Positions 1,504-63,690 of a DNA stretch of 64,000 nucleotides are shown here, piece by piece. The notes under the pieces were generated by a model. It searched no databases. It was given only the letters and a program-made list of their open reading frames with translations, and was not told where the DNA came from. How positions within the stretch are numbered: position 1 is the stretch's first letter; every line of letters begins with the position of its first letter. The position numbers and the translations under genes were made by a program. Origin of the DNA: Lytechinus pictus (lineage: Eukaryota); NCBI RefSeq assembly GCF_037042905.1, contig NC_087250.1:23996001-24060000 (forward strand), written 5' to 3'.

Positions 1504-3082
1504 ATAACATGTATACACATGATGTGATCTACACAACCAATTCATTGATCAACATCAACATCAACTTCGCCTAGCGTATGAGTTTAATAAATGATATTAA
1601 ACATTTTGATGGAATCTATACATTCTTTTCAGCATCATGCATAATAAAAAAGTGCATAATACCCGATGATGTTTGATACACAATTATCTACGCGTGTACT
1701 CATGAATAATGCAATTAGGGCCCCGTATCACAAGAGTTGCTATATATATATATTAAAAATAAACTCAAATTGAGAGTGATGCATTCTCTTTATAACCGGA
1801 TTATACAATTACCTTAGTCCCCCAGCATTGGATAAACAAAGCTTGGCACACTCGGCTTTCATTTATATTCATCTCTTACTTATTAGACTCAGTAGTTCTA
1901 TAGTATTGAGAAAGGGTGTAAATAGACTATAATGACAAATAAAACAACAACAACTAGCTAATTTGAGATCAAATTCAGTTTAAGTTGGAATCTCTAGTCT
2001 AGAATCTATAGACTGACCTTTGCCGACCGTGCCAATAAATTGAAATATTTGCATACAAATAAAAGAAATGAGCATATACATGTAATCCAAGCAAGAAGTC
2101 TTCAAATAACGACATGACACACTCCACATATATTATAAGAGCCTGTCAGCAATTAATGCAAGACGACGGTATACTTGTAATTGCACATAGCGATATTAAA
2201 ATCTTAAGGCCTACATGTACATGTAGATGGGATTTGGTTGACACGACTTTCACTCGACTTTATTGACCGATAGAGTACTACGTGCTATATGCCCAGTGTT
2301 TCAGACATGCGGCCGTCGTGTGTATTCTCAAGATGAATACCTTGGCATATTAATTGCTTATGTTTACATAGATAATGGCATTCATTTACAACGGGAGGGG
2401 ATATACTATGTAAGTAATGGATATCCTCACTGCATACTGACTGTACAATATACCAACACTTCTTACGAAATGTATCACATGACACGCAGGTGTATGGCAC
2501 ACGCACGGCCATGCTCCATAGAGACTTACGACTATAATAAAATGACTTTGTTTTATGTGGTCTTTAGGTAAAAAAAAACCTTAGAGCTACCATGGCTACC
2601 TACATGTACATGTTCCAATATATACACGTATAGTACAAACATCTACCCTAAAACCAGTGGCCAGGTCAACCGACATCACGTGACTATAAACCTTCTTCCA
2701 TCCTAGGCAAGTTGGGCAGGGCGCCATTATGACTAGTCTGATTGGGGTCTTGATGTATAAACATGCTTCCTTCAACTATTATAACCTAGCCTTTAGAGTT
2801 ATCTTAAATCTAGACGGATAATGATGCTATACGACTGTATTTCAGGTGTAAATGTATTATAATTTGTGATTAAGTGTAAAGTGTGTGTGCGTATCAGTGT
2901 GCGCTCGTTGAGGAAAGAACTAAATGTTTTATTGAAAATATATACATGTACATGCACATGGCTGTAGGACAAAAATCCTCGAACATAAAACCGACTCTTG
3001 GTCTTATACAAGCTACAAACATGCACATGTATGATGTACTGTAAATCTGGCAAGCTGTAGAACCGTGCACATGTAATATGTA

Positions 3083-3903
3083 CAGTGCGTCCCACAAAAA
3101 ACGAAACCGAGATTTATCAATGATTTTTCATAGCTTAATCACAAATACAATAGACAAATGACCTCCCATTTTAAAGCTTAGAATATCCTCTTTCATCTGA
3201 CAGTACTTAGATTATTTCTCATTCACGCATGAGTGAGCAAAAATAATTTGAAAAGGGGATACCAAAAAGTCACTTGGCGGGTCGTATCTGGGTTTTAAAA
3301 AGAAAACCACATTTTGAAAAAGTCCAATATCTGCTCTTTAATTTTATACCTCAATTACAGAAAATGGTCAAGAAATAACAAATTTCTGGTTATTTGAAAT
3401 AAGGCTTGAATTTCAATAATTTCATAAAATGAAGAGGTTTTACAGGCTAGCGTTCAAACTCACTCGACACTCTGTTTTGTTGACGATCAGCCATGCATTA
3501 AGTCTTTTGTTACCCTGCAATAGCTTCTGTGGGAAACCGGTGAAAACACGTTTATTTAATGAAATTATGGAAATACAAGCATTGTTTCGAGGGATCATAA
3601 CTTTTTTACTTCTGGACCATTTTCTGTCATTAAGGTATCAAACAAAAGAGCAGATATTGAACTTTTTAGTCATGTGATTTTCTTTTCAAGAAATTCAGAT
3701 ACCTCCCGCCAAATGAGTTTTTGGCATCCTTTCTTCGAATTGTTTTTGCTCACTCATGCGTGAATAAGGATTAATCTAAGTAATATCAGATGAAAGAGGA
3801 GATTCTAAGCTTTTGATTGGTAGGTCATTTGTCTATTTTATTTATGATTAAGTTATGATAAATCATCGCTAAATCTCGGTTTCGTTTTTTCTGGGACGCA
3901 TTG
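3083..3903. mobile_element. Tc1/mariner-type non-autonomous element with long TIRs
   Basis: TA|CAGTGCGTCCCACAAAAAACGAAACCGAGATTTA ... TAAATCTCGGTTTCGTTTTTTCTGGGACGCATTG|TA; inverted similarity extends over 300 bp; TA target duplication. Confidence 0.85.
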
Positions 3904-6900
3904 TATAATCGTTTTACCATGATGATGTTTTATGGTCCTAAATACATGGAAGCATCCTTAAGACTACCTGCCTGTCACGATTTTCGCATTAATTTAATTG
4001 GCTCGACTTGAAATGGGAAGTTAAATCTAAACAGACAATGCAAACATATGAAAGTGAGCAGGACTTCACTGTTCTACAATGTCCTATCATGTTCTGCTTG
4101 TGAATGCATCGGGAATTATATTGAATTAAATTTCAGTATTATATAATCAAGATCTAAAAAACAAACAAACAAACAGTGATTGTGATTCACATTTACAAGG
4201 CGAAAGTTATTATTTCCTTAAAACTACATCTATATCAAAGGCGCCATTTTTGTTTGTATGTCCGTACAGGTTGTTTGTCGCGACATTAGGGCGATTCCAA
4301 GACTTTTCCATGTAATATTTCGTCAATTGTTTGAAAGTGTCTGGACACCGGACCCCCCATCCTACTCCATATTCTGGACAATAAATTTGTCAAACCCTTA
4401 TTTACGTGTCGGGATACTCATTGATAGCGTATTATTTCATAGATTAGCAACATTATTTTCTTTACAGAATGTGTGATATAAAGCAAAGCCAAGAAAATAC
4501 TCAACTACTTTAAAAGAAGAAGGGATCCCCAAAAGGTCAAGAAGTACCCCTTCCCCCCAAAAAAAACTAAAGAAGAATGTAATAATGTGAAATAAATCTG
4601 AATGTGTTGCCTACTGACATGACTGAAGATAAGATAATACAAACTAAAACGAAAATGTGGGCTGTACATCTTTGTAAAAACTTTGTGCCGTCGACACATC
4701 TTCAAGTTGTTACATGTAGGATAAGGGCATTGTATCATAAAGTTGTGGGGTTGATTATTGTGACCGTACATGATCAATTTAAAATTTTAAGAAGCCCCAT
4801 GAACAATCGCTAAGCTTCATGTTACAGGCTCCGTGCATCAAAAGATATTGTATAAATTTAGAGGTTCTCCTGGGACTTTAAATTAGAGTAACGATTCCAT
4901 GTTGCTTAACACGACACATGTATACTTAAATAAACGTTACACTGTATATGCTTCTAAGGAACATAAAGGGAATGGAAGTATTCCATGAAAATATTGTCAG
5001 CCCTTGTTCACTTCGAAGTGTTATAAAATCGTGAAATCCATGCATTTGATTGGATGACAGCAAACTTGTCAGTGAAAATCACTCGCAAGACGTTTCATGT
5101 AATGCCCTCGGAGGTCTCGCTTTTTCGAACGCTTCATCGAGCAATCCTCTCGATCAACTCTGGCATTAGAATAAACTTCCTTTACTCTGATAGGTAAAAA
5201 TTACAATGTACATGTAGCTTTCGAAGCCACTGGACTATATTCATGATATTGGAAACGAACAGAATTACCGTATTTAATATCAGTCGTGAACACGAAAATA
5301 CTTTGATGCTATACACTTACAACAAAGAAACCGGCAGATATGTCAATATGAAAATACCCAAATCTAGCACAATCTCTATGCAAAATTTGAACATTTTGAG
5401 ATATTGGCTATAATATGTGTGTGTTCACGTTCTCTGTTTAGATTGGAAACAGTGTGTAAGTCCCACACTCTGTCACAGTGTGAAACAAATGTTAACTCAT
5501 TCATTTTTACACTTTTAAATTTGAGCATTTTATCCGTTTAGATAGTCAACTATGTGAACTCAATGTGAGTACTCACAATGTAGAGATGCCCACAGTGTGA
5601 AATTTCTTGTACGTTGTTAAATTTGTGTATTTTAACAGTGCAAATCACATTTTGACAAGTCATAGTCCACTATGATCTAAAAGACATTGTGTGACACTTT
5701 TTCCTACAGGGACACTGTTCTTTCCATTAGGGCGGGGTGGATGAAGGAGTGAAAATGTGTTTATGTGTTTGTGTGCGTTTGTGCGAGAAGAGGAAAAAAT
5801 ACATGTACATGCAGGGGGTTGTATACGTTACACAGATTTTTCTTTATTGATTAAAATCTTACAAAATTTGGAGCATTTGATTTTGATGATTGGAAGCATA
5901 TATGTAATGACATTAGTCCGAAACAAGAAAGGACGGCGATGCAATAAAAGAGGTGAATCATACATGTACATGATTCTTTCGGAAAATAAAATGAAATTTT
6001 TTTTGCTACATACAGCGAGTCATAGTAAGATATCATAAAATGTACAGATTGCTATAAATACAAAATGGCGGCAACGAGTCGAAATTATGGAAAGACATGA
6101 AATTCCCTGAAGGGGTCAACATCTAAAGGAGATACCGTTTGCAATTGCAGTTGGAGCAAATTGTCATGTGGTGAAGCATTGTACACAAGCTGCTAGTCCA
6201 ACTGGTTAAATATGGCAGCTCGGCCTCGCCTCCGCTGCACCATTAGTGGAGAAGCAAAGTGCTATTTAGCCTCAGGCTTGGACAGGGATAGATGTCAGAT
6301 GACAATGCACACGGCTCCATGCATGTACGACAAATTGGAAGCAGAAGAAGAAAAAAGAAGCATTGCGAAAATGATATGTCTATCGGCGGAGGTAGAATGG
6401 AATTATTCATTGCAAAGGGATTGTGTTCTTCCAACAAAATAAATTTGTATTCCTTACTAAAATATGCGCGCGTTCATCGGAGAATACTAGTACTGTATTT
6501 CCACGAACGTGTATTAATAATGTTGTATATGGCTAGTAAGCTTACGCGACATTCTCACGCGACTTTCTTACACATCCATGTTATTGGGGAGGGGGTTGCT
6601 TTATCATTTTACGCAAATTCTAGGTCCTGTATCTTGCCACATTTTTCTAAAGAAAATATTTTTCTGCTTAAATTGTGGATATATCTAATATTGCCTGAAA
6701 AAGAAATAACAAACTTCAGTAGACTTAATTTGAACTTCTTCATTTCTTCGGGCTTATGGCAAAACACATTCCAAATGTCATGATCATCATATTCGTATCG
6801 TTTGCAATACAAAACATACATTGGCACGTGAGGGACTATGTTCAGAGCATCAATCTTCCATCTAATGGCGAAGGCTTGACAAATTCCGGCATATAATGAC

Positions 6901-17869: not shown

Positions 17870-18085
17870 GGCTGATATGAGATACTTGTAAGTGTTACAC
17901 AAGTAACTTTACCGAAGTTACTTCGAAACAAAAACATGTATAAATGCTACACAGTCTACAGCTAATACATTTACACTTTTGTGGAATACTTATTTGAAAT
18001 ACCGATGGAGACCGTTTTCTGCTCATTTGAAATGCTCGAATTAAGCTTTCAATGACCTCTGAAAAACTTTCATAAATACATTTAA

Positions 18086-18670
18086 AGGGGAATGAAACCT
18101 TTGGAACAAATAGGCTTGTGTCGAAACAGAAAAATCAAAGAATAAGAACAAAGAAAGTTTGAGAAAAATCGGACAAATAATGAGAAAGTTATGAGCATTT
18201 GAATATTGCAATCACTAATGCTATTTAGATCCTCCTATTGGCAATGTGACAAGGATGTGTGATGTCACATGTGAACAACTTTCCCTTTGATGAACTCTAA
18301 AATACCCCCAAAATGTCTCTTTTTGCTTTTTCTTAAGGTGATACAAACTCTTTATCCACGATGTATTTTTTTAAATCTGTATTACATGCCCTCCTATAGA
18401 AAGAATACATGATCTACTGATAGATGTGATAAAAGAGGCAGTTTAAGTGAAATATATAGTAAAGTAATGGGGAGAGTTGTTCACAAGTGACATCACACAT
18501 CTTTGTCGCATTGCCAATTATGAGGATCTCCATAGCATTAGTGATCGCAATATTCAAATGCTCATAACTTTTTCATTATTTGTCCGATTTTTTTCAAACT
18601 TTCGTTGATCTGTTTCTTTGATTTTTCTGTTTTCACACAAGCTTTCTTGTTCCAAAGGTTTTATTCTCCT
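18086..18670. mobile_element. Kolobok-like non-autonomous element with long TIRs
   Basis: TTAA|AGGGGAATGAAACCTTTGGAACAA ... TTGTTCCAAAGGTTTTATTCTCCT|TTTA; about 200-bp inverted arms including ATGAGCATTTGAATATTGC / GCAATATTCAAATGCTCAT. Confidence 0.8.
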
Positions 18671-20767
18671 TTTATTACCGACATCCAATTATACGTGACA
18701 GGTCGCAGCGCCAATGGAGTAAAGCTTTGAAATAATGGTGACATATAATGTCATCTTTTATTATGTTTGTACATGTAAATCCTTAATTCATTTCACAATG
18801 TTGTCCTTCATGTATTCTGGAAAACAATGAAAATTATAATGACTTTGGCGATCGTAAGTATGAATAGCATGGATCAAATCAAAATCTTGTTTCTTTATCA
18901 GTATGAAATAACGACCGTTTGAAATAAGTTAATCTCCATACCTCACTTGTGTTTTTCATGCGTCTGTTATTTATTTTTATTACTATTATTATTAATATTA
19001 TCATCATTATCATTAATATTCTTATCATTTTTATTATCGTAATTTTAATTATTACCGCAATCTTATTCATTTGATTTTCTCTGTTAATCGTGTTCATTGT
19101 GTCCAATATTAAAGCCTAACACGCAAGTGAACTAAAAATATTGCATGTTTTCAAACATGGTCTCTTGTCATGCGTACTCATATAAAAATCACCAAGGTTC
19201 AATTCAAATGCTAATAAGGTGCATATTAAAAGAGATATGCTTTAAAAACATTTCATTGACTATGTTTTTTTCAGTAAAATATATGAAACATGGGGTTGTA
19301 TATCTTTTATGATATAGTATTCAGAAAGGTTAACATTTTACACGATAGTCATGTTAGATTATCTAGCTACTAATAACAGAAGATTTCTCCCTTATAGAAT
19401 TTGGGAAGAATGTCCTATCAACTTAGTGGTGAGGCACGTGTATGTGCATGTTATTGCACCTTGAAGACAGTCGTTTAGGTTATTCTACTTGCCTAGTACC
19501 AATTTGTTTTCCATTCATTTTGCTTCTCTGGCGCTTTCCCTCGTTTTTTAATCACGAACCACCAATGTCTATCATTCGTTCGTCGTACCTCCGCTCAGAG
19601 ACTTGCTCCAATTTAATATTGGCTGCTGTACAAACCCTTTGATTGGCAAGTCTACAAGATCGCAGTGCAGCGCGGTTTAATTTTACATCACGTCAGTATC
19701 TCTGAAGATGACCACTTTTACCCGGTTCTCAATATCCTCTTTCATGTTTTTTTTTCTCCCTTTTGTTCTGCCAAATGCCAATAAAGCTAACATGGCTAAA
19801 GAGTTGGATCAACACAGAGAACTGTTTTCAAGAAATCGTTTACGGCAAAATGATGATGATGCATGCAATTTAATCGGGGGAAAATGCCCAAGACTCTCCT
19901 AAGATGTTATCAGGGTAATAACGAAAAGCATTAAGGACAATGTTCAAGAAATAACGATATCCGCAACCGCCACAAAGAACTACAACAATCCGCAAAGAAA
20001 AAAAAAATAAATTAAGAGTGCTGCTGCATGTTCATTAGAGAGATAAGTTGGTTTGCAGCTTTGAAATTCTATTCGAATATTTGAAGATGTTTGTAAGTTT
20101 GTCAATCATATTGAGACATCGCGGAAATCTGTACAAAAATTTGTGACCCCTGTGGTACACCGTGTTTGTCAATGTGTTTCGATTCACCGTTATTTTTGTT
20201 ATCATCACAATTTTTTTTTAAATTTTGGAGTCGATTAGTTTGTTGATTTACAACTTAATTTTTTACCCCTCTACTATGTCTACCCTTTCGGGCTTGACAT
20301 TTTATCAGTCACTGTTTTCCCATCATTTCCAATGAGAAGAAACCAATCAATAATTCGCCCCTTTGCGCACCCCATCTCTATAACTGTATCCTTACTGTCC
20401 GGACGAGATGAGAAGCGCAATATATAATGAATCGCCCAGAGAACCCCGGGTGACCTCCGGGGTACCTATTCCATTTCACCTTTCTCCCTATTTCCAATGG
20501 GTTTATTTTAGCTTCTGTAATAGATCGAATCGTTATTTTGCCCTGTTCGAAGTTCAAACTTTCAATCAAGAAACTGACTATTTTCCTGCAAGGACTTTGC
20601 CATGATTTATTATAGTACCATACAAATGCTACGGTGTACAAATGAAATGGGCGAGTGTCTGAATAACGCAGTGGGACGCCTAAATTCCCCAATATTTCCT
20701 CATATTATATTTTATTTGTTTTTAATAACTTTTGTTAATTGGCTACACTATTAATTCGTGTATTTTA

Positions 20768-22020
20768 CACTGTTAAAAATTGCCGTAATTTTACGGACAA
20801 AATTTAACAGAAATCGTCCGTAAACGATAAAATACGGAATAAAATTGTAAATTTACGGATTTCTACAGAAAATCCGTAAAAATTACATAATAATCAGGTA
20901 AATGATCAAATTTACAGACGTAATTTTCTGTAATTGTACAGAAGATCATTATTGAAAGGAGACGTTTACGATACATCTTGTAAATTTACTGTGAAGTAGA
21001 TGTAAGTTTACGGATAAGATAATTTGCATTACGTGTAAAGTGCAATTTCTACGGAAAAATTTGTAAAATTTACTGAAAAATCAGGTTAATGATACATTTT
21101 CTGACGTTGTCCGTAATTGTAGTGAAGATCATTCTTGAAAGGAGACGTTTAGTGGTTTACGGTACAAATCTTTGTAAATTTACTAGAAAGTAGCTGTAAG
21201 TTTACGGACAAGATTGAACAGATTAATTTGTAATACGTGTAAAGTGCAATTTCTACGGAAAATTTGTAAAAATTACATAAAAATCAGGTAAATGATCAAT
21301 TTTACAAACGTTTTAATCCGTATAATTGTACAGAAGATCATTATTGAAAGGAGACGTTTACAGTACATCTTGTAAATTTACTGTAAAGTAGATGTAAGTT
21401 TACGGACAACGTCAGAAAATTTATCATTAACCTGATTTTTCTGTAAATTTTCGTAGAAATTCCACTTTACACATATTACAAATAAATCTGTTTATCTTAT
21501 CCGTAAACTTGAAAGGAGATATTTAGTGGTTTACTGTACAAATCTTTGTAAATTTACTAGAAAGTAGCTGTAAATTTACGGACAAGATTTAACAGATAAA
21601 GTGCAATTTCTACGGAAACTTTGTAGAATTTACAGAAAAATCAGGTTAATGATAAATTTACTGACGTTGTCCGTAATTGTAGTGAAGATCATTATTGAAA
21701 GGAGACGTTTACGATACATCTTGTAAATTTACTGTAAAGTAGATGTAAGTTTATGGACAAGATTTAACAGATTAATTTGTAATATGTGTATATAGTGCAA
21801 TTTCTTCGGAAAATTTGTAAAATTTACAGAAAAATCAGGTTATAATGGTAAATTTACTGACGTAAGGAGACGTTTACGATACATCTTTGTAAATTTACTG
21901 TAAAGTAGATGTAAGTTTACAGACACGATTTAACAGATTAATTCGTAATATGTGCAAAGTGCAATTTATACGGAAACTTTGTAAAATTTACAGAAAAATC
22001 AAGTTAATGATAAGTTTTCT
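20768..22020. repeat. Left subterminal tandem array (about 170-210-bp units, about 6 copies, one inverted segment)
   Basis: AAGGAGACGTTTA recurs at about 20956, 21139, 21347, 21513 (variant), 21699 and 21864. Confidence 0.9.
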
Positions 22021-22130
22021 TTTTCGAGCATGCGCACTTGAGAAGTTTGTGAAAAGCCCGCGAAGCAAAGAGAATTTTCCTTGATGTCTTGGATGTGTCA
22101 AGTGATCTTCTTGATCAGAAATTCGTAAGT
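22021..22130 (+). promoter_or_regulatory. Candidate promoter / non-coding first exon just inside the left array
   Basis: GCATGCGCA (NRF1-like) motif, local CpG enrichment, then donor-like TTC|GTAAGT at about 22125; same strand as the transposase gene. Confidence 0.3.
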
Positions 22131-22583
22131 ATTTTGCTTTGAATTCGTAAAAGAAATTTCTGCTGGGCTTCTCTGGAATATATTGATACGTTTTATGCAG
22201 TTATATGAAATTAATAGTGTTGGTTTTCATGATTACGAACAAGGTTTTGGCATTGACAAGTCCAGACGATGCAATGTATCGTCGCGTACGCGCTGCTACA
22301 GTCCCATTGGTGCATTTGAGTGTTGGATATTTTGACACTGTGGTTGAACGAATTGAATCGAAGCCGGTGCGAAGCCGTGGGCCAAGCTTGTTTTATGAGC
22401 TTCACAAGGATATTTATATTATGATGCCATTTATATATTCATTTGTATCTTCATTTGTAAATGTCAAGATGAAAATATAAGCCTCAAAATATTAAATTTG
22501 TGCAATTAAACTTATTTAAAGGGGTGGATTAGATTAGATCTAGGGCCTAATTTCAAATCAATGACAATGTCAACAATGTCAAT

Positions 22584-23478
22584 GGGTGATTTCAAGTACG
22601 GTGTTGAAATCTGGTGTTGGTGTTGTGACAACACCGTACTTGAAATCAGGCTGGTGTTGGGATTGACCTCGGAAAATATGACGTATTTCCGGCAGTTCGT
22701 GTTGAATGTCGTCTGCTGAACCCAGCACTGCGGCTGGTGTTGACGATCTACGACTACGTGCAATTTCCCCATTCACTAACACCAACCCCCAGGGATTGGG
22801 AAAATCATGGTTTCAAGTTCGGTGTTGGTGTTGGCAATCTCAAGCTCGTGAACAGGCGGCAAACACGATGAAACATCCCCGTAAAATTAGCTTTTACAGT
22901 TAAGATGAGCTAGTAGGCCTACTAGTAGTAGAACAAATCATTTGAGCTGTAGGGGCCTATATTATATATTTTGATAAAGAATAATGTTCACTCTTTCGAA
23001 TTCTTGAATTAATTAAAACATTGGTAGGATGGGGGGTTGGGTGTCCGGACACGTAACAGAAATGAAGCCTTGTTTTTATCTCAGGAATAAACCAAAAATA
23101 TAGGTTGAATAGTTTTTTTTCACCATCAATATTTGTTCTTTATAATATTTTCTTATATTCTGTGCTAAAAAGAATTAAAGACATTGCTTGTAAACTTTTC
23201 AAAATTGAGAGTAAAAGTCATGTGTCCGGACACACAACCACTGGGTATACATGTATTCTGTACGATGAGAATTTAATGCATTTCTTTCCGATTTCATTTT
23301 CGTCGTCGAGACTTCTCGCGTGAAGTTGAGATGATTTAGCAGCGCAGAGGCGTGACGTCATGTGCTATCGATAACGCAATTGGTATCATTCCTCTGAACC
23401 CAGTCCCAGCTCGGTGTTGGAGCTCGGTTCAGCGGCCTTTTTACGCTCTCAACACCAACACCGAACTTGAAATCACCC
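22584..23478. mobile_element. PHIS-group MITE, GGGTGATTTCAAGT family, copy 2
   Basis: AAT|GGGTGATTTCAAGTACGGTGTTG ... CAACACCGAACTTGAAATCACCC|AAT; long internal similarity to 40255-41240. Confidence 0.85.
23023..23250. mobile_element. GTGTCCGGACAC-motif fragment, inverted homologue of 60699-60941
   Basis: GGTAGGATGGGGG..GGGTGTCCGGACAC ... GTGTCCGGACACACAACCACTGGGTATAC matches the reverse complement of 60699-60941; absent from the same position in MITE copy 3. Confidence 0.7.
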
Positions 23479-23508
23479 AATGTCAACTACAGTTAGTTAG
23501 ATCTAGTA

Positions 23509-24031
23509 TACCTCGAGCGAAGTTCGTGCAGGCTCCACTCCACTTCACTACCGCTGCACTACACTCCACCTACCCAAACTTCGGGACGGTGATCTCGATC
23601 GGATATTCCGAGTGACAAAGGTGGGGTGGCCGATGGAAATGTTATTTATTGTAAAAATCATAACAAAAAATATAAAGAGAAAGAAAAATGGCTTAATTTC
23701 TTACTCTTCACCCGTATTTCACTCCGTGTCCATCCTCTGGTTATCCTCTAAATTGTTGATTTTGAGCCAGTATCTATTTCCTCACACGTCACTATTCATG
23801 GCCGATTTAAAAACATCGCATGCGATCGGTCGCAGGTCAAACAGCATAAATATTTATATTATTATTGGATGGTTCAGAAAATACCAAAAATATTCTACGA
23901 GTATGGGAAAATGTTTTTTTTCCTCATTTTATTTTTTTCTATATTTTTTACAATAAATAACATTTCCATCCCACCTTTGTCACTAGCGGTAGTGAAGTGG
24001 AGTGGAGCCTGCACGAACTTCGCTCGAGGTA
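23509..24031. mobile_element. MITE with 47-bp perfect TIRs and 9-bp TSD (Mutator/MULE-like)
   Basis: GATCTAGTA|TACCTCGAGCGAAGTTCGTGCAGGCTCCACTCCACTTCACTACCGCT ... AGCGGTAGTGAAGTGGAGTGGAGCCTGCACGAACTTCGCTCGAGGTA|GATCTAGTA. Confidence 0.9.
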
Positions 24032-24143
24032 GATCTAGTAATGACTTAGTGCTGGCTAGCGACCGACGGGTTTCCATTCTCAGCCATTCACTGATAATTC
24101 AGTTAAGACAGTGTGTTCCATGTGTGTATGTGTGATGCGAAGC

Positions 24144-24235
24144 TACCTCAGCTCAAGCGATGTAGACGACCTTGTTGGAGCGTACAGTGTAGCGGTAGTG
24201 AAGTGGAGTGGAGCCTGCGAACATCGCTTTAGGTA
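24144..24235. mobile_element. 92-bp mini-MITE of the same TACCT family with 9-bp TSD
   Basis: ATGCGAAGC|TACCT ... AGCGGTAGTGAAGTGGAGTGGAGCCTGCGAACATCGCTTTAGGTA|ATGCGAAGC. Confidence 0.8.
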
Positions 24236-26189
24236 ATGCGAAGCGTGCTGTACATGTGTCCTCTGGACGTGTGGGCATGTGCATGTGATTGTGAAGGGTT
24301 GAAGCCCGGGTTGAAGTTTCTTACAGCTCTGGGTTTATCTATAATTAAATGATTCTCTTTTCAAGCTTAAATTTTTATAATGATGATTGCTACATTCCAA
24401 TTATTTGATTAAATTGTTTGTTTTAGAACAGGTCTTTTATTTTGTCCTCAGTCTATTTCTCCCATTACATATCAATTAAAGAGAGTCTTCACTTGTGTTT
24501 CATTAAATTATTATACAATGTCCACTGTAATGAAAATGGAAACATGCCGGTCAAATGAAAGTGCAATATAAGTGGAAACATGCTGGTCTATTGACTATAT
24601 GTTGACCATATAGTAGAAAGCAAAATTTGTTCTCAGCTGTAATTATTCTTCTATGGGAACTTGCTTCTCATAGATCAAATAAAATTTCCGAAGACCCCAT
24701 ATAATTTTGTACTATTTGGTGCATTTAAAGAGGAGAAAGAAATGCTTTTTTTTTTCAATTTGCCTAAATTGCATTTAAAAATATACCTTTCTTTTGCTTT
24801 CGGCACAGGCCAATTTTTAGAGGCTGAAATATTAAAGAGTTGATTACTTAAATTTCGTTCTAAAATATTTTTCATATCACTTGCAAATAGAGAAAATTTA
24901 GCGCCGCTCCCAAAAAAAACTTTGATTTTTAAAGGCATCTCGCACAAATGATTACAATGTTTTTGTTTTATTTATCATTCACTATGAGATCTGTATAAAG
25001 TGATAAACCAATGAATTATTTTTATATGTATATGTTTCCAATTATTTGCCTACCGGTATTTATTAAAAAATAATGTTTGTGTTGTTATTTGACAATTGTT
25101 TCACAGAATTACGTCGTCGGTTGACATCTACCTATACCCATGGATTATCTCCATCACCTTCACAACCTTGAATTGCTAAGAGAGGTATGATTGATAAATT
25201 TGGTTTACATTGTTTTAATTTGTTTAAAAGTATTATTGAAATGATTTGATGAGATAACAAAAATGAAAACTTGAAATAACATTTTGAATGTAATTTTTGT
25301 TAATCTTGGGAAGACAATTAAGATTGCAGTTATTATGTTGGTAGATGTGTAATCAAATCTACATGCACATGTTCACTGTTTGGAACGTTTATAAAGATCA
25401 CAAAATAAAAGAATTAAAAATAATATTCAACTCTTCTGCATACATGTACAGCTACCTTTGCCAAGACCACGTCGTGGGCTACGGGATGCTAGAAATCCAT
25501 CGGAATCGTACGAGGATGGGCCATTTCAAGATCGGTATTGACTGTCAAAAGAAACCGTCATTTACATCATCAACATGCTGGAAGCCGAATTGAAGAGGGA
25601 CACACAGAGGAATGATCCACTTCCCGTTTATTTGCAGGTGTTGACGGCTCTCCGTTTTCATGCAGTGGGTGAGTAATTGAATTAAATGATTATTGAATGT
25701 TTCTGGGCACTGTTAAATCTATTTGACTGAGGTTGTTTCTATTAATTTTAGGACTCCAGACAAAGTTGATGATGATGACAATATCTAGAAATCAGAGAGG
25801 GATCACATAAGTAAGAGTATCATTTAAGCAAACAGTCAAGTACCTATGAATTGCATGCTTAAAAATTCCAAAACTACCACAGCAGGAGTGAAGCTCTGCT
25901 GTTTCTGCTGTTAGAACTGTTATGTCAGGTTAGAGTTATAAATTCGTCATTAACCCTAAATTGGCAGATCACCCCCACCCCCCCCCCCCCCGAAACTTGG
26001 CTGTGTTGCGATGAAAAGCTATGAAATTTGGCACATAGATAACAACTCGAGATGAACATACACACAAAAAACTAGAGCTGCAATCGTATCAGAACAATGT
26101 GCATGCATTGACGCCTGTGATTTTATGGAGGGCAAGAAACAGAAGAAGATAAAGAGAAAACTCCTGAGGATATACATTTTCAAAATATT

Positions 26190-26700
26190 AAGAGGGCGCT
26201 ATTTTTATAGGCAATGGTCACTGATGCGTAAAAAAAACATTTTGCATATGAGGGATGATGCCATTAGCAAACCCTAAAAAAGTGATACCAAGATAAATGG
26301 AAACAAGGAAGTGATGGCCATTTTACTGTTTTCCAACTTTTTAATAGAGAGCGCTATTTCTTAAAGGTAATGGTCACTGATGTGCGTTAAAAAACATGGA
26401 TTATGAGGGATGATGCCATAAGCATACCCTGAAAATATGAGACCGAAATAAATGAAAACTAGGAACTTATCGTCATGGCCATTATAATTTTTCTTTAGTT
26501 TGCAATAGAGGGCGCTATTTTTTAAGATAATGGTCATTGATGTGTGAAATGAAAAAAAAAACAATTGAATTTGGACTATCATAAGTCAACCCTGAAAATA
26601 TGAAACTGAAATAAATGAAAACAAGTAAGTGATTGCCATTTTACTATTCAGACCAAAATGAATAAAAACAAGGAAGTTACGGCCATTTTATGATTTTCCT
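26190..26700. repeat. Degenerate tandem repeat (about 155-160-bp unit, 3-4 copies) in a transposase intron
   Basis: GCGCTATTT...AATGGTCA(C/T)TGATG recurs at about 26195, 26350 and 26510. Confidence 0.75.
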
Positions 26701-27913
26701 ACTTTACATTTCAATAAATATTAATTTTTTAAATGTAGACTATTTCGGATTTGAATTAAGGGCATGAAGACGGCATTTTCAAGGGCAAGTCATATTTTCA
26801 TATGAAGAGCAACTCTTAGACAATCTACAGCAATTTGTTAGAAGTGTGTAGCATGCAGGATAAGAGAGTAAGGATGGGATTAGGAATAGTATGCAAATGG
26901 ACTAGAAATTTACAAAATGGCGCCTGGATGGTCATGCATTGCCCCTGTCCGTCCGCCCCCCCCCCCCCCACTTGGTTTCCGCGCAATAAGTAAAAAAATA
27001 TGTAATGGATAAAAAAAATTTGGTGTGTAGGTATAGGACACCAAAATACAGGCTCAGTTCGAATTCGGAGTCCGCAGGTCAAAGGTCACAGCTCATTAGA
27101 TATGCGAGTTGGTTTCCACATGATTATCATAAGTTCCAAATGAATATTTAGAAATGTTTTTTTATTTGAATTATAATCATGTGAATGATCACACATAGAC
27201 ATCTACTATGTATGGGAAATACCATGTATGTTGCGCGCCATGTTATATAGTGGTACACTTTGGGGGTACTGACCAATTTTTTTGAACTTTTATCAATAGA
27301 TGTGCAAAAACATCAAGGTAAAAAGTCAAAAGCACGGGGCAGAAAATAACATTATTCAATAGCTGTTTTTGAAGTCAGTAGGGGAGACCGGGGTTAGTTG
27401 GAACATGGGGTAAGTTGAAACATTGTAATTTTCTTTAACGTCTTTAAATAAATTTCTGCAATACTGCCCTCAAGTTATTGTCATTATCAACGGCCATCCA
27501 CCATATTACAGACAACACATGTGCAACAAGCCTGGTGAAGTTAGAAACAAATTTTTGTTTTTTGACCTTCTGAGTAAATTTTTTCTCGTTCAGAAATGTT
27601 TGATTATCTCAGAGAAGTTTACAGATCAAGTTGGCCAGTTTAGGGGTATAATATACACTTATACCAAGCTACAAAATGAGGTTATTAATATGCCATGGTG
27701 AAGTCCCTTTTTTGTGCTGTAAGCTTATAAACGTCGAATGAGCCTCCGGGGTTAGTTGGAACAAAATTGAAGGGGCTAGTTGGAACATGTTCCAACTTAC
27801 CCCAAACATAATTATGAATGAAAATATTGGATATGAGAAAAAAAAAAAAAAGTATTTCACACTCTTCTGAACATGTATTGTATACCATGCTTAGGCACCT
27901 AATGCAATGTTAA

Positions 27914-28406
27914 CCCTTTTTTAATATAAAAAGGGGGGGTCAATTTGAGCCCCCCTCAAGATATTTTGTCACTATGCCGTCGCACGAAATTTTTTGACTA
28001 CACTCAGCTAGCTGACTTTTTACTTTCAAGTCTTGCGCATCATTTGAGACCAAATTTGTGATGCCTGTGTGCGCGGTTTCAAAATTACGCAACAAATTGT
28101 ATGTGCATGTTCGGACCCAAAATTGTTCAAAAAGGTGATTCCATGTACAAGGTCAATGCAAATTGTGTTTTTCAACCAAAAGTCATAAATGTATGATTAT
28201 TTTTTTACTTTTGCTGGTTCAAATAGATTCATTTTATGCTATTTATGATCGCAAAAGACTCCTGACAAAGTCCATCGGAAAAAACAAAGTTCGAAAAAAC
28301 AAAAAATACATAAGAAATTATATTTTATGCATTTTTTGGTGGATATTTGTTATAAATGTGAAAATTGATACTCTCACCAAAGATTCTACTAGCTTAATAA
28401 ATAGAG
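27914..28406. mobile_element. Possible piggyBac-like insertion nested in the TA element
   Basis: TTAA|CCC left end followed by GGGGGTCAATTTGAGCCCCC; right end (GAG|TTAA) is only tentative. Confidence 0.35.
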
Positions 28407-28636
28407 TTAAAGGCAAAAACATACCAAAAAAAAACAAATTTCTGGAAAATTTTATATGCTTATTTGCATAATTAATTATGAAAAAAATAAAAACAATCAA
28501 TTTTTGTCTTATAAATTTGATGCAGAAGTACATGAAATTGGTGATAGTACACTTAATTGCATGTAAACTCAAACGCACCCAAATATGCGGAATTCTACTA
28601 CACAGTCTGCTTGCGTGAGTGGCTGTATAATAGAAA

Positions 28637-28846
28637 ACATAAAGTTCAACGAATCCACACTTTAATATTTTGAACTTGAATAAGATAAAACAAATAGGCT
28701 ATAGTAATATTACAGTTTTAAGTAGTTTTAGTATAATTCTTACATAAAGTTCAACGAATCCACACTTTAATATTTGAACTTGAATAAGATAAAGCAAATA
28801 GGCTACATGTAATATTACAGTTTTAAGTAGTTTTAGTATAATTCTT
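28637..28846 (+). repeat. Tandem duplication, 2 x about 105 bp
   Basis: ACATAAAGTTCAACGAATCCACACTTTAATATTT...TTTTAAGTAGTTTTAGTATAATTCTT occurs twice head to tail. Confidence 0.9.
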
Positions 28847-30447
28847 AATTGACCATGCAGTGTTCCAACTTACCCCATACCATGTTCCAACTTACCCCGA
28901 TATGGGGGTAAGTTGGAACGTTTGCGATAGTCTTGTTCAAGGTGGATTTTTTCAGTAACCATAATAGAGTTAAAAATTTTATGGGGTACACTTGAAGCCC
29001 TGAGATATATGCTTCAAGCTGATATATTGATTGTTTCTCGAATAAAATCTATTTGGATTTTACAGCCATTTTTGTCAAAAATGTTCCAACTAACCCCGGT
29101 CTCCCCTACTGCTGCTATATCGAATCGCGTATGATGGCGACACTGCAAGAGGCCTTCCACTTGTTAAAATGAATTGCAGAAAATTGTCTGATATTTGTAA
29201 AAGATGAATATTCTTATGAAATATGTGCTTAATTTTTTTTATCATCAGAAGTATCATCTGTATGTGTAATGAAATGTTTTAAAATTACCTCGAAACAATG
29301 ACCTATCAACCATATGGTTTGTTTGATTTTACAGGATCATTTCAAAAGATGCATGGTGATGAGGCAGCAATATCACAGTCATCAATGTGTCGAATCATCA
29401 AAGATGTGTCAGAAGCTATAGCAAGAAGGAAAAGGCAATACATGAAGTTTCCTTCGACAAGAGAAGAAGTTGAAGCAACTCAGCGACAGTTCTTCCAGTA
29501 CTGCAGATTTCCAGGAGTGATAGGTGCAATTGATGGGACACATGTCTACATCAGGAGCCCTGGTGGGGATCAGGCAATATACTTCCTCAACAGGAAGAAT
29601 AGATACTCGATCAATGTTCAGGTTAGATTAATTATACCCTTTCTTAGGCCCTTTTCACAATTAGTGCTGAGACTGCTTGCAACCTTTGTGATTGTGTGCG
29701 GCATATATTGTGATCAAATGATTGCAATTGCTAATACAAGCAAATGTGAAAGCCACTTAAATTACTATAACTAGAACAATGTACTATTTTGTATAAATTT
29801 TGGCCAAAAAAAAGAATGTGACATTAATTTTCTTTCCTAGGATTTCCTATCACTTCAGTTTCATTTATAGTAATTATTCGATTCGTATTTGATTGGGCAA
29901 TTTTTAAAATGAGTAGTTAATTCTGTAGCATATATATATTTTTTTTTTGTGCAAGTACTGAGCAATTGAAGCAGTGGAAGGGTGGGGTGATTGTTGGATA
30001 AATCAACCTAACATGGAAAGCACACCAATAATTTTTATGTGCATGCATGTTAAAATTGCATTCCAAATATGTGATAAACTTGCAAAACTCAATTGTTGTG
30101 TGCTCCCATTGGATGTCCCAAAGAAAATTGAAAATTAAGTGCCCAGAACGATATAGAGACAGTTATGAATGTAAGATTTGATATTCCTCTTTTGTCTTCT
30201 GCTAGGTTGTTTGTGATCAGGCTGGGAAAATAACAAGCATCGTTGCCAGATGGCCTGGCAGCACACCTAACTCCGCAACCGTAAGTCACTTTTCAACCAA
30301 ACTTGGATGGTAGATGTACTTAGGCGACCTGCATATTATGCTGCAGTCGGAGGTCACATGGTAAGGTCAAAGTGTTCAAAGTTTTTGTAGAAATGTACCA
30401 AACCCGACGGTGCTCTCACTCCATGATGTGTCACTGCATCGTAGCAA

Positions 30448-31362
30448 TCCAGTCGGATTTGAAATGGTCTACACATGTTGAATATATGGTCAAGAGCGCA
30501 AATAGTCGTTTATATGTTCTTCGCACTTTGAAATATCATAGTCTGTAATTTCAGGACCTTATAGTTGTATATACTAGTTTCGTGAGACCAGTTGTTGAAT
30601 ATGCTGTACCTGTATGGTCAGGAGCACTAACAAAACAACAAGTACAAGTCATCGAACGTATTCAGAAACGTGCCCTTAGAATCATTTTTGGAGCAGCATA
30701 TTCTTCATATGAGCATGCTTTACTCCAGTCAGAACTGATGTCTCTTGAAGATAGATGGATCAAACTCTTTGACTTGCGTTTGCGAAGTCTATGCAAATCC
30801 CCACGTCTAAACTGTATCACCTTCTACCTCAAAATAGGACTTGTCAATATCAGACTAGAAGCTTGGCCGGAACAGTAGAGATGCGATGTCGAACTTCACG
30901 ATATAGAAATAGCCCCTTGCCCTCGTTGATTCGGCACCTTAAAGAGAAATTCCAGTAGTTGCAGTGATTTCATGAGAAAGTCTGTAAAACAAGGCTTAAT
31001 TGTCAGTATATCATCGAGGATCTAGATCTGGTACAGTTACATAAACTGAACTTTGTGAAATCTTGAAATCTACGCTGAAAAATGTTCAGGCTGAAGATCC
31101 CCAACACAGATAAGCGCACGTGGGACAGTGTATAATTATTGCTTCGAATGTCGGGCCCGACGCTCTACCCGAATCCTGTGCTTATTTGCTGATTTCTCAG
31201 CAATTACACAATTTCTTCCAGAATCCTTTGGCACATATGTTTTATTTATACAAACAGACACTTTGGTGGTCATTTCATTGGATTCTGTACGAACTCATTT
31301 TGATATCGTTACCAAAACTAGCATTTACCTTTAACTCTAAAAGAATTGATTACAAGGAGTAG
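30448..31362 (+). mobile_element. CR1-group LINE ORF2 C-terminal remnant (pseudogenised)
   Basis: IQSDLKWSTHVEYMVKSANSRLYVLRTLK..*..YTSFVRPVVEYAVPVWSGALT..IERIQKRALRII; after frameshift, terminal CRTSRYRNSPLPSLIRHL[MITE]NSKRIDYKE*. Confidence 0.85.
30943..31330. mobile_element. Kolobok-like MITE inserted in the LINE ORF2 end
   Basis: TTAA|AGAGAAAT ... ATTTACCT|TTAA; removal restores the frame IRHLNSKR; related fragment at about 58497-58590. Confidence 0.8.
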
Positions 31363-31899
31363 TTTTTTTTGTATATATCTTCCCCTATCGTTACATGTAT
31401 AATAATATCAAACTACGAATGGCTGAGAATTAAAGAACTCATCATTCATTGGACTCTTAAAATGTGATATCATTAAGAGATTGTTTTTTATAAAATGCAG
31501 ATTACATACTAATTCTAATGTTGAGTTCTCTTTATGTTGGCGAACTCAAGTTTCATTTCATTTCATTTTACTTTGTTAATCAAAATATTTTTCTTTCATA
31601 TGAGCAATTATTCACTGATATCTAGTCGTAAACTTAATATTTGAATTGAAGTCATAAAAATTGCCAAAATATGTATTATTGCAGCATATTAGATTATCGT
31701 TTTTTCCCAAAGTAATGTAATTCAGAATTTAATATGTAAATGTGTTTATTAATTTCTCTTTGTATATATGTTTAATCGTTTTATGATTTCTGTATACAGT
31801 GAATACTGAATCATTTATTTTTATTATTATTTATTCATTTTTATTTGTTTATTTTTTATTCATTTTATATATATTGTTTATTTCTTAATTTTATCTTAT

Positions 31900-32470
31900 T
31901 TTTTATTCATAAAATTTACTTATAAAAGGGGGCCTTCACCCTACAAGCTCTGCTTTTTAGTTGGTCTCCTTCCCTTTCGATTTCATGGTATTATTGTATT
32001 ATAAAAAAATGATTTAAATGTTATATTTTGTTATAATGTATATTGAACTATCATTGTAAATGTAAAAAGATTGAAAGAGAAAATAAATGAATTGAATTGA
32101 ATTGCTTCTTCGCCCTTTTCTCTCTGTTTCCCTTCCACCATCAATTTCTTCTCTTCTCTCTCTCTCTCTCTGCCTCTCTTCTCTCTTCCACTATTTCTAT
32201 TCCTTTCTGCTTTCCAATTCATTTCCTCTATCCACTCATATTTACATGTATTTTGAATATTTTTCAATTTTTTTTATTGATCAGTGAGTATCAATTTAAA
32301 TTTATTTATGATATACTTTGTTACATATGTCTATATTGAAATTTGTTCATAGTACTATAAGTTTTTTTACCTTGTTATTGATGATTTTGTTTGAAATGTA
32401 AATTTTCGCAATTCGGCTTTTGCCGCAAAGAAAGGATTTTTAATAAACCATTTTGACTTGAATTGAATTT
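31900..32470 (+). mobile_element. LINE-like 3' ends with microsatellite tails
   Basis: AATAAA followed by (GAATT)n at about 32082-32104; AATAAA followed by TTGACTTGAATTGAATT at about 32442-32469. Confidence 0.5.
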
Positions 32471-32829
32471 ACAGGTCAACATTAAAGTTTATGTGCAAGG
32501 CTCTTATGACAAGTGTTATTCCATCCCAGTCATTTCACAATGAAGTTTCAATACAATTATGTTGTGTGCCCTCGCAAATCACAATATTTCTGGTTATTTT
32601 CATGAGTGGGCGAGACACAATCACTGTTGCCATGTTTTATTCTAGAAATAGTAAGCTTAGTATGAAAAAAATTATTGAAAAAAGCTGGCCCGATTTGTCC
32701 AGGTCAGAAAAGGGCAACACAATTTTTGTTCAGGCCTTAAGTGAATGCATTCATACAATCTACCATGTGTTTGGGAGTACATGTTTAAATAGCAAATCAG
32801 CGTTCCTATTGTAAGGTATCTACTGATTA

Positions 32830-33603
32830 AAAAATATCTGTAAAAAATTTAAGAATTCTGTAAACTTGTTTTTTTACGGAAATGTGTAAATTTACATGGG
32901 AATTTTGTAAAAGTATGGTAATTTTACGGAAAAGGAATCCGTAAAATTACGGATTAAAAAAAAAAATTCCGGCAGCAAAATTTCCGGACAAATTTTTTTT
33001 TTCCGTTAATTATTTATACGGAATCATGTTAATTCACGTAAATTTTCTGTAAAATTTCCGTAAATAATATCCATATTTTACATGGGAATTTGTAAAAGTA
33101 CGGTAATTTTACGGAAAAGGAATCCGTAAAATTACGGACAAAAAAAAAAAAAAATTCCGGCAGCAAAATTTCCGGACAAATTTTTTTTTTCCGTTAATTA
33201 TTTATACGGAATCATGTTAATTCACGTAAATTTTCTGTAAAATTTCCGTACATAAAATCCGTATTTTACATGGGAATTTTGTAAAAGTACGGTAATTTTA
33301 CGGAAAAGGAATCCGTAAGATTACGGACAAAAAAAAAAAAAATTCCGGCAGCAAAATTTTCGGACAAATTTTTTTTTTCCGTTAATTATTTATACGGAAT
33401 CATGTTAATTTATGTAAATTTTCTGTAAAGTTTCCGTAAATAAAGTCCGTATTTTCAAGAATTGTAATTTACGGAATCTTGTATATTTTACAGAACTTTT
33501 CCATAAATTACCACTTTCTGTAAATTTACGGAAAAAAAAAAAAAGTCCGGAAATTCTGCTGCCGGACTTTTTCCGTTAAAAAACGGAAATTTTTCTAACA
33601 GTG
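32830..33603. repeat. Right subterminal tandem array (about 187-bp unit, 3 near-identical copies plus terminal inverted part)
   Basis: TTTACATGGGAATTT..GTAAAAGTA(C/T)GGTAATTTTACGGAAAAGGAATCCGTAA at about 32891, 33077 and 33266. Confidence 0.9.
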
Positions 33604-34330
33604 TAGAAAATGTTGATAACATTCTTATAAAACTATAAAACAAATCTCTGTCTTTTCAAAACCGCGAATTATTAGATGGAGGATTTGTTACTAGTACAAA
33701 CCGTGAAATTGGTTGTAAATGATTCTTACATCAAAACTATCAAATCAAAGTCTTCAGTAGAGTGTATGTATGTCAAATTCTAGTTTAAAGGGGTAATGTG
33801 TTATGTTTGAAGCAAATTACCTGCACATTTTACGAAATTTTGAGGGAAATTTTACCCTTAAAATATCATTTTTGCCAAAAAGTATTATATTGTAGAATTT
33901 TTTAATTATTAATTGATTTTTTGTTTAGTTTTTTTTTTTCGTTATTGTAGAATAAGGTTTTAATATTTTATCAGCAATCCGACCGTGAAGTCATGTACCT
34001 GAGTGTTCCATTGCATGCTAGCCTGCTACCGGCATCAATCCAGCGAAAGTTCGAATTATTATGAGCAGATGTCACCATATTGATACCACATGTAAGTCTG
34101 ATATAATCCCAAGACCTACTCAGTTTACCATATTGCGTACATTGAGGCTTAAGTCCGAATCCTCAACATAAACTCCATGTTCATACTGATTGCTTGCCCG
34201 ACGATTGATGTCCTAAAGATTTGTCTGTCTCGGACGTCATCAGAGGGCATCTAGGAAAAGAAGGTGACCCGGTGGGTGTTCCGCTAAGCTTTTCGTAAGT
34301 TACGAACGACTTTACGTACGACTGGTGATG

Positions 34331-40980: not shown

Positions 40981-41305
40981 ATTGTTGAAGTAATATCAGT
41001 CTATGCATTCTGTAAGAATAGATGTTACTCTAATTTCTCCCCGATTTAACTTTATTCGTCAAAAAGTTCTCGCGTAATGTTGTGTTGTGCAGCGCAGCGC
41101 AGAGGCGTGACGTCATAGGCTATCGATAACGCGATCTGTATCATTCCTCTGAACCCAGCTCAGTGTTGGAACTCGGTTCAGCAGCCTTTTCACGCTCTCA
41201 ACACCAACATCAACACCGAACACCGAACTTGAAATCACCCAATGATAATTATTAAAACATAAATCACTAAGATTATTAGCATGTTTTGATATGGTTCTCA
41301 TTCTA

Positions 41306-41501
41306 CACTCTTAAAAATGTTGGGCAACATACGGTCCACACAACAATTGGTTAAAACTTTATCCAATTCTGGGTAGTTTTACACCAATACTGTGTAGTTT
41401 TCACCCAAAGCACACATTATTGGTGTAAAACTACCCAGAATTGGATAAAGTTTTAACCAATTGTTGTGTGGACCGTATGTTGCCCAACATTTTTAAGAGT
41501 G
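41306..41501. mobile_element. CACTC-terminated palindromic MITE, TA TSD
   Basis: TA|CACTCTTAAAAATGTTGGGCAACATACGGTCCACAC ... GTGTGGACCGTATGTTGCCCAACATTTTTAAGAGTG|TA; about 80-bp perfect arms. Confidence 0.9.
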
Positions 41502-41503
41502 TA

Positions 41504-58750: not shown

Positions 58751-58896
58751 CTGGGGAGTGTTTCATGAAAGGACTTGTCAGAAGTTTTATCCGACAAGTC
58801 CCATTTTATCCGACAGTTACCATAGGAACAATGCCTCTCAGCCAATCAAAATCAAGGAAAGTTGTCAGATCTGAATGTTGATGAAACACTCCCCAG
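58751..58896. mobile_element. Harbinger-like MITE (GGGGAGTGTTTCAT TIR, CWG site)
   Basis: CTGGGGAGTGTTTCATGAA ... TTGATGAAACACTCCCCAG. Confidence 0.8.
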
Positions 58897-59041
58897 GTGA
58901 CGCATCTATATGCGTTTAACTCTGACACATAAAAAGCGGTATCCTGCGTCTCCCGTCCCTGATTTTGCAACCAATCCGATGACGCATTTATACACGTCTA
59001 ACTCTGACGCGTAAAAACCCGATAGCCCACGTTTCTCAAGC

Positions 59042-59203
59042 CTGGGGAGTGTTTCATCAAGATTTTTGTCCGACAAGTCGTCAGATCTGACAACTTTCCT
59101 TGATTCTGATTGGCTGTGAGGCAGTGTTACTATGGTAACTGTCGTATTAAATAAGACTTGTCGGATAAAACGTCCGACAAGTCCTTCATGAAACACTCCC
59201 CAG
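59042..59203. mobile_element. Same MITE family, opposite orientation
   Basis: CTGGGGAGTGTTTCATCAA ... TTCATGAAACACTCCCCAG; interior is the reverse complement of 58751-58896; degraded relative near 4975-5108. Confidence 0.8.
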
Positions 59204-62249: not shown

Positions 62250-63690
62250 AGTGGAGCGGTTATGTGACAAAAAATGGCCAAGATGCTCGGATCTGGCAGA
62301 AAGTGTGAAATTTGGTATACAGGGGTATTTTTGGGCGCTGATTTCAAAAATTGCCGGCCCCAAGCGATTTGACCATCGGGTCGGCCGCCATTTTGAAATC
62401 CAAGATGGCCGCCATGCAAAATCATCAAATGTCATTTTTTTTTTAGTTTTACATGGCATGTGACACTGAAATTTGGCATATAGGGGTATTATGAGGCACT
62501 GATTTCAAATATTGCCGGCCCCCAGCAATTTGACCATTTGGTCGGCGGCAAAATGGCCGCCATCTTGAAATCCAAGATGGCCGCCATGATATATTATTGC
62601 AATCATTTTCTCGAGTTTTATATGAACTGCGGTATTGAAATTTGGCATAAAGGCTTAATTTGGGGTGCTGATTTCAAATATTGCCGGCCCCAAGTGATTT
62701 GACCATTGGGTCGGCCGCCATTTTGAAATCCAAGATGGCCGCCATGAGAAATCATTAATGTCATTTTCTTGAGTTTTACATGACGTGTGACACTGAAATT
62801 TGGTATGTTGGGGTATTTTTAGGCACTGATTTCAAATATTGCCTGCCCCCAGCAATTTGACCACTTGGTCGGCGGCTAAATGGCCGCCATTTTGAAATCC
62901 AAGATGGCTGCCATGAAAAATCATTAAATGTCATTTTCTTGAGTTTTACATGATATGTGACACTGAAATTTGGCATATAGGCTTAATTCGGCGTGCTGAT
63001 TTCAAATATTGCCGGTCCCAAGTGATATGACCATCGGGTTGGCCGCCATTTTGAAATCCAAGATGGCCGCCATGAGAAATCATTAATGTCATTTTCTTGA
63101 GTTTTACATGACATGTGACACTGAAATTTGGTATGATGTGGTATTTTTAGGCACTGATTTCAAATATTGCCAGCCCCCAGCAATTTGACCACTTGGTCGG
63201 CGGCAAAATGGCCGCCATCTTGAAATTCAAGATGGCTGCCATGATACAAAATTGCAATCATTTTCTTGAGTTTTATATGAACTGCGGTATTGAAATTTGG
63301 CATATAGGCTTAATTTTTGGCGCTGATTTCATATATTGCCGGCCTCGAGCGATTTGACCATCGGGTCAGCCGCCATTTGAAATCCAAGATGGCCACATGA
63401 AAAATCATTGAACTCGATTTCCTTGAATTTTACATAATATGTGCCATTGAAATTTGTAGTATATCGGTATCTGGGTGAGTTCATTAAAAAAATTGCTGGC
63501 TCCAAGCAATCTGACAATTAGTCGGCGGAAAAAGGGCCGTCATCTTGAATTCGAAGCTGGCTGCCATAGAAATATTGCAATTATTTCGTTGAGTTTTATA
63601 TGATCTGCGGTATTGCACTTTGACATATAGAAGTAGTGTGGGGAGCTTATTTCAAATATTGCTGGCCCTCAGCGATCTGATCCCCTGAGT
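62250..63690. repeat. Tandem satellite, about 9 monomers alternating about 158 and 169 bp
   Basis: GAAATTTG anchor at 62307, 62468, 62637, 62795, 62965, 63123, 63292, 63449 and a degraded one at about 63615; core GGCCGCCATTTTGAAATCCAAGATGGCCGCC. Confidence 0.92.

Follow-up and report, generated by a model that had tools for sequence, protein, structure and literature searches.

We describe here a 12.8-kb element in a stretch of 64,000 nucleotides from the sea urchin Lytechinus pictus (assembly GCF_037042905.1, NC_087250.1, positions 23,996,001 to 24,060,000 of the forward strand; this whole stretch is called the window). The element runs from 20768 (CACTG) to 33603 (CAGTG), has TA on either flank, and encloses a spliced HARBI1-like transposase gene of the Harbinger type. 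It is a copy of a real, recently spreading transposon family, called family A here, which we define as a non-autonomous cut-and-paste family of about 11 kb with CACTG...CAGTG ends. Family A is probably a CACTA/CMCT-like vehicle, non-autonomous, whose cargo is a decayed Harbinger nested within it; this would be ordinary nesting with later amplification, not a novel hybrid. An earlier, sequence-only reading of this DNA had offered two interpretations, either a Pack-CACTA-like element by which a foreign transposase gene was captured and spread or a family coupling the Harbinger enzyme to CACTG ends. The former is retained; the latter is given up, in view of an intact relative found between ordinary Harbinger terminal inverted repeats (TIRs) and of the incomplete catalytic domain in family A.

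The genome (812 Mb) was searched with the left end, the right end and exon 3 of the HARBI1-like gene, with 40 candidates scored in each search, and the counts are therefore lower bounds. A right end in the correct orientation lay within 60 kb for 32 of the 40 listed left ends, giving at least 32 paired copies, and exon 3 was enclosed in 29 of these. The genome-wide count of ends and gene together had been proposed in the sequence-only reading, and their joint occurrence is borne out. Most paired copies measure 10.4 to 13.3 kb, and the listed left ends are spread over 16 contigs. All 19 pairs with both flanks (a set that omits one nested outer copy) had a 2-bp target duplication, and a 3-bp match was seen in 0/19; the dinucleotide was TA in 15, the remainder being TG, TT, AA and CA. 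Two further copies, on C3 and C21, were tiled (11,192 and 11,030 bp). Over most of their length they show 97 to 99% identity to the window copy, which owes 1.73 kb of its 12.8 kb to an insertion missing from both. Some copies lie inside others: 7 of 30 left ends (L003, L006, L012, L020, L028, L029 and L030) and 5 of 30 right ends were inserted within another family-A copy, and in these nested cases the host copy acts as an empty site with a single dinucleotide, the flanks having been compared by eye.

Self-insertion was seen at 7 of 30 left ends even though family A makes up less than 0.1% of the genome, and a single megabase, C5:55.3-56.3 Mb, holds 11 of the 40 listed left ends. The clustering and self-insertion could reflect either local hopping or self-targeting. 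At L030 and L039 (C5:55441032 and C5:55961364), which are 520 kb apart in opposite orientation, the two flanks together make up a single target site; this suggests a rearrangement at the element end.

The ends of the window element look like those of a CACTA-type transposon. Reading of the flanks and TIRs agreed with the earlier description of TA-flanked imperfect TIRs at 20768 and 33603; the TIR is about 30 bp long. Tandem repeats were called at 20859-22006 (period about 194, 69% matches) on the left and at 32891-33455 (period 188, 95% matches) on the right, with different monomers as judged from their consensus units. The density of CCGTAA/TTACGG was 10.5/kb in the left array and 18.3/kb in the right one, versus 0.14 to 0.28/kb in the interior and outside. 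Neither array contained an inner CACTG/CAGTG terminus. Thus, the earlier description of arrays with different monomers, one common CCGTAAA/TTTACGG-type motif and no terminus of their own was accurate.

Family A and the window element show CA..TG (CAC..GTG) termini, a 2-bp target duplication (19/19) and short-motif subterminal repeats, as in the CMCT clade of CACTA/EnSpm elements. Subterminal repeats of a short motif are a trait of plant CACTA elements. The CMCT clade has CA..TG termini and 2- to 5-bp duplications (PMC12730594), and animal CACTA elements have 2-bp duplications (PMC1636069, PMC4298943). Family A resembles animal CACTA/EnSpm (TRC) and CMCT elements in its CA..TG termini, its variable 2-bp duplication and its tandem repeats near the ends (PMC1636069, PMC4298943, PMC12730594). 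PIF/Harbinger elements are described as having two open reading frames (ORFs), TIRs starting with A or G, 3-bp duplications and an average length of about 4 kb (PMC4482050). The cargo gene of family A, a DDE_Tnp_4 transposase, is of this kind, as in the PHIS superfamily; family A as an element is not, having no TIR with a G or A start, no 3-bp duplication (0/19), no complete catalytic domain and, within the paired copies, no match to PF13873, among 107 matches in all, that would indicate the second ORF, of Myb/SANT type. The CACTA/CMCT assignment is based on end anatomy only.

The sole transposase similarity inside the element is that of the HARBI1-like gene, as the sequence-only reading had observed when it noted neither a CACTA TnpD nor Harbinger TIRs. 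A tblastn search for an EnSpm transposase gave no match inside the window element, none of 57 further stop-free frames reached the Pfam cut-off, and no remnant of the TIRs of an intact Harbinger family (family B, described below) was present at up to 4 mismatches, bar one chance-level match. The captured cargo identified in the element is transposon-derived. The gene has four exons and a 218-codon frame, and codon 45 is TGA in the window copy. Its family-A product of 218 amino acids covers positions 1 to 59 of the 158-position DDE_Tnp_4 profile, of which the intact relative P0006 covers 1 to 158; in this comparison the catalytic residues are those that we take to be such in the profile. DDE_Tnp_4 homology is therefore present at the level of the gene and a complete catalytic domain is not. 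The last exon has no match within any paired family-A copy. With that exon absent and the domain partial, the gene within the CACTG ends cannot encode a complete catalytic domain.

Decay is apparent in the exons that are left. Exon 4 is whole in 2 of 30 exon-3 loci (L081 and L088), and the other loci that reach exon 4 share a deletion of about 180 bp. Distinct changes in exon 3 across the 30 loci were 15 synonymous, 42 nonsynonymous and 5 nonsense (pN/pS 0.83, P = 0.53 versus neutrality, in a test of a single exon with little power); the exon is frameshifted in 9 loci and has stops or frameshifts in 12. It is very probable that the Harbinger gene is passive cargo in family A. Four loci (L078, L079, L083 and L090) form a subfamily with an insertion of about 600 bp, made of short C-rich tandem units, in exon 4.

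The ends also move without the gene. The terminal pattern had 5699 matches in the genome versus 1091 for a reversed control, many of them in facing pairs about 270 to 290 bp apart, that is, MITEs (miniature inverted-repeat transposable elements). All three sampled MITEs had asymmetric 12-bp termini as in family A, together with TA duplications. Two long copies on C5 (C5:43934438-43974733, 40 kb, L017/L056; and C5:56191174-56223748, 32 kb, L015/L043) are bounded by family-A ends and TA duplications; of the body, only the last 1.1 kb is common to them and family A, and searches with exon 3 and with the region upstream of exon 1 gave no match in them. Their different interior, with tandem units of about 1.07 kb, was found only on C5, and the 40-kb copy follows a degenerate EnSpm transposase gene at a distance of about 190 bp. 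Copies of about 50 kb on C22, C28 and C38 were considered as parents and rejected, because they hold the same truncated gene, with the extra DNA placed between its 5′ part and its exon 3.

An intact relative of the cargo gene is found in an ordinary Harbinger family. In a tree of 22 homologs, whose members are unlabelled and include no labelled PHIS references, the family-A proteins fall within a 100/100 clade of eight sea-urchin proteins with no resolved inner order. Family B (P0006) comprises 8 near-identical copies, with 150 of 203 residues identical to family A (74%). Its TIRs start with GGCCCG (the left exact in 7/8, the right exact in 7/8), 7/8 copies have a convergent Myb ORF some 330 bp inward of the right TIR, and the six copies with both ends are 12.0 to 17.2 kb long (for example, C9:17047263-17064495), with 3-bp duplications in 4/6 (CTT, AAA, TCT and TGA). 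Family B thus matches PIF/Harbinger (PMC4482050) in its two-ORF layout, G-starting TIRs and mostly 3-bp duplications, and differs in its size, 12 to 17 kb against an average of about 4 kb, and in duplications that are not TWA; it appears as a young, intact, unusually large, intron-containing Harbinger. Among 22 last-exon loci (at least 56% identity), 16 had a convergent Myb gene within 20 kb, and none had a listed CACTG-type end within 100 kb. The sequence-only reading had named copies of the transposase between ordinary Harbinger TIRs with 3-bp duplications as evidence against its proposal; the intact relative in family B, with mostly 3-bp duplications, provides this evidence against the hybrid.

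The enzyme that drives family A is likely of the EnSpm/CMCT type. At least 8 long EnSpm-type ORFs are present in the genome, and a genome search with PF02992 gave 12 matches among 15 candidates. Neither PF02992, a 90-amino-acid genome fragment nor the 812-amino-acid homolog P0034 (43 matches) placed an EnSpm gene inside a family-A copy. Of three BEN domain matches genome-wide, two are beside EnSpm ORFs (C13 and C14) and none is in family A. C14:1491088-1499875 and C13:28964101-28972884 are two copies of an EnSpm ORF (a 914-amino-acid frame) with the BEN match about 6.4 kb off on the opposite strand.

The best lead for an autonomous parent, judging from similarity, would be a sister family. The body segment 22030-22510 matches six other loci at 82 to 83% (C16:412727, C3:54422699, C4:17219214, C15:8502465, C6:1360062 and C1:22902819), and at five of these the match covers about 478 bases, the scores being almost equal; among the end and transposase searches made, these loci had no family-A end and no transposase match. 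The locus at C1:22902819 lies on the strand of a family-B copy, 7 kb outside the copy's left TIR, and from these coordinates the two may be a present-day case of a Harbinger nested in a sister-type element. A second gene in 22187-22477 was considered and rejected, having no Pfam family, no homolog among 11 candidates and atlas matches of at most 0.80, which is chance level.

We propose a history in five steps. A vehicle with CACTG ends existed without the Harbinger gene, as the MITEs and the long gene-free copies show, and one copy of it would then have received a Harbinger of the local sea-urchin clade. Deletions would have removed this Harbinger's TIRs, Myb gene and last exon, all now absent, and a later deletion, evident from the two copies that keep exon 4, cut that exon. 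The composite was amplified, as its copies show, and this would have happened in trans, through an enzyme recognising the CACTG ends and the arrays and producing 2-bp duplications; the enzyme is likely of EnSpm/CMCT type and would bind the arrays. The Harbinger fragment is carried along while decaying, as exon 3 indicates within the limited power of its test.

Several observations weigh against this explanation. No donor Harbinger closer than about 74 to 84% was found together with its TIRs, nor a Harbinger TIR remnant at the insertion point, so that nesting is something we infer. Ends were determined for family B only, the other intact families being judged by their Myb gene and by having no CACTG ends nearby, and 2/6 family-B copies have only a 2-bp AT match. 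No autonomous element with these ends was found: the 12 EnSpm-type ORF loci have no listed family-A-type end within 900 kb. The animal CACTA termini shown in PMC1636069 and PMC4298943 are CCC, not CACTG, and family A is further unlike the animal CACTA/EnSpm (TRC) and CMCT elements (PMC1636069, PMC4298943, PMC12730594) in its strong TA preference and in having no Transposase_21-type gene. Finally, exon 3 is identical to the window copy in 11 of 30 loci, and an annotated 218-amino-acid product exists, consistent with a role for the short protein. Such a role, in which the truncated protein (the N-terminal part and the first catalytic motif) is kept to block the family-B transposase, for instance, or to help bind the ends, would also fit the open frame of the youngest copies and the existence of annotated gene models. 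However, the pN/pS of 0.83, the 12 of 30 exon-3 loci with stops or frameshifts and the stop at codon 45 of the window copy all argue otherwise, and identity among young copies is expected from recent amplification; we find a kept function very unlikely.

The two family-B copies with a 2-bp match, and the union of gene and ends in 29 of 32 pairs, could be taken to mean that a Harbinger-clade transposase acts on CACTG ends, natively or in trans, with 2-bp duplications, comparable to fungal PHISTA. The genome has young, intact Harbingers of the same clade, TA duplications are described for some PHIS elements (PMC12730594), and no EnSpm partner was found near the listed ends. Yet no paired copy has a complete gene and exon 3 appears neutral, the TIRs of family B start with GG and its duplications are 3 bp in 4/6, none of the 22 last-exon loci is near a listed CACTG end, and CACTG ends move without the gene, making such a hybrid highly improbable, marginally more so than a kept function. 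The cargo history might also be as above but with another driver, a lineage not yet described that prefers TA (the counterpart of ESTA in animals, or some other superfamily) and whose gene would lie in the sister family or in the long C5 copies. There are thousands of termini and no Transposase_21-type ORF near any listed end, the sister family (82 to 83%, six loci) had no transposase match in the searches made, and TA is preferred (15/19); on the other hand, few candidates were scored per search, spliced, divergent EnSpm genes would escape, and the end anatomy fits CMCT (PMC12730594). We regard this driver as quite unlikely. Segmental duplication or an assembly artefact, in place of transposition, might be suspected from three left ends on small contigs that share one flank, from three C23 right ends that do likewise, and from the 11 of 40 listed left ends in 1 Mb of C5, but on 16 contigs the copies stop at an identical base, in flanks that differ and with duplications that match. 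The 2-bp duplications in 19/19 refute this for family A as a whole, and its probability is negligible.

One can envision a bolder version of these ideas. The CACTG ends would be moved by an enzyme not recognisable as EnSpm, from an animal lineage not yet described, which would prefer TA and be encoded in the sister family or the 32- to 40-kb copies, or, least likely, by a Harbinger in trans; the elements would home into their own copies (7/30 ends), trapping and carrying other transposons, and the C1 locus would be a Harbinger caught in the act. This is unlikely, though well short of negligible. If the driver were such a lineage, it would explain the thousands of unassigned MITE ends in this genome.

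The features of the window copy are collected in Table 1. Outside the element, the window holds a tandem array at 62306-63680 (period 169/328, about 8 copies) and long inverted-repeat elements, foldback or MITE-like, at 3081-3905, 18084-18672, 41304-41503 and 58769-59186.

Table 1. Features of the family-A copy, in window coordinates
Feature	Position	Strand	Remarks
TA target-site duplication, left	20766..20767	no strand	flank reading
Imperfect TIR, left, CACTG start	20768..20797	+	all 40 listed left-end copies begin here
Subterminal array, left	20798..22010	no strand	period ~194, one inverted unit, CCGTAA/TTACGG-rich
Body segment shared with sister family	22030..22510	+	GT-AG bounded; 82-83% at six other loci; no protein homolog found
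Nested non-coding element	22577..23485	no strand	30-bp inverted arms; left part also in C3 and C21 copies
Nested non-coding element	23509..24031	no strand	47-bp perfect arms, 9-bp flanking direct repeat
HARBI1-like transposase, exon 1	25140..25184	+	ATG
HARBI1-like, exon 2	25452..25668	+	TGA at 25539 (codon 45); sense codon in C3 and C21 copies
Nested element of 1.73 kb in intron 2	27381..29106	no strand	G-rich TIRs, TA duplication; missing from C3 and C21 copies
HARBI1-like, exon 3	29335..29621	+	start of DDE_Tnp_4 domain
HARBI1-like, exon 4	30206..30313	+	~180-bp deletion, runs into new stop; last exon absent
Probable fragment of a non-long-terminal-repeat retrotransposon	30340..30950	+	presumed from resemblance; no Pfam match
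Right body block	32474..32839	no strand	common to long copies without the Harbinger gene
Subterminal array, right	32840..33572	no strand	period 188, 3 copies, CCGTAA/TTACGG-rich
Imperfect TIR, right, CAGTG end	33573..33603	-
TA target-site duplication, right	33604..33605	no strand	flank reading

Family A recalls systems known from other organisms. Like the Pack-CACTA elements of Arabidopsis (PMC6379663), it is non-autonomous and CACTA-related, transports foreign DNA and lands in or close to copies of itself, but its cargo is a transposon fragment with nested MITEs and not a host gene, its host is an animal, and its duplication is 2 bp. The PHISTA and ESTA lineages of rust fungi, Harbinger-related and EnSpm-like, respectively, share TA duplications with it (PMC12730594); both carry their own transposase, whereas family A encloses no active enzyme and sometimes duplicates a dinucleotide other than TA. 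Fungal TET/JBP genes are reported to have passed passively from one DNA-transposon superfamily to another (PMC12730594). Our literature search, with Repbase and Dfam outside its scope, found no description of family A or of an animal CACTA element with a Harbinger gene, and a catalogued relative may exist.

These findings call for caution in classification. Filing by the enclosed enzyme would make family A a Harbinger, whereas the ends and the target duplication are those of a different system, and the enclosed gene produces dozens of false HARBI1 gene models. Family A is a clear animal example of a gene of one transposon superfamily amplified as the passenger of another.

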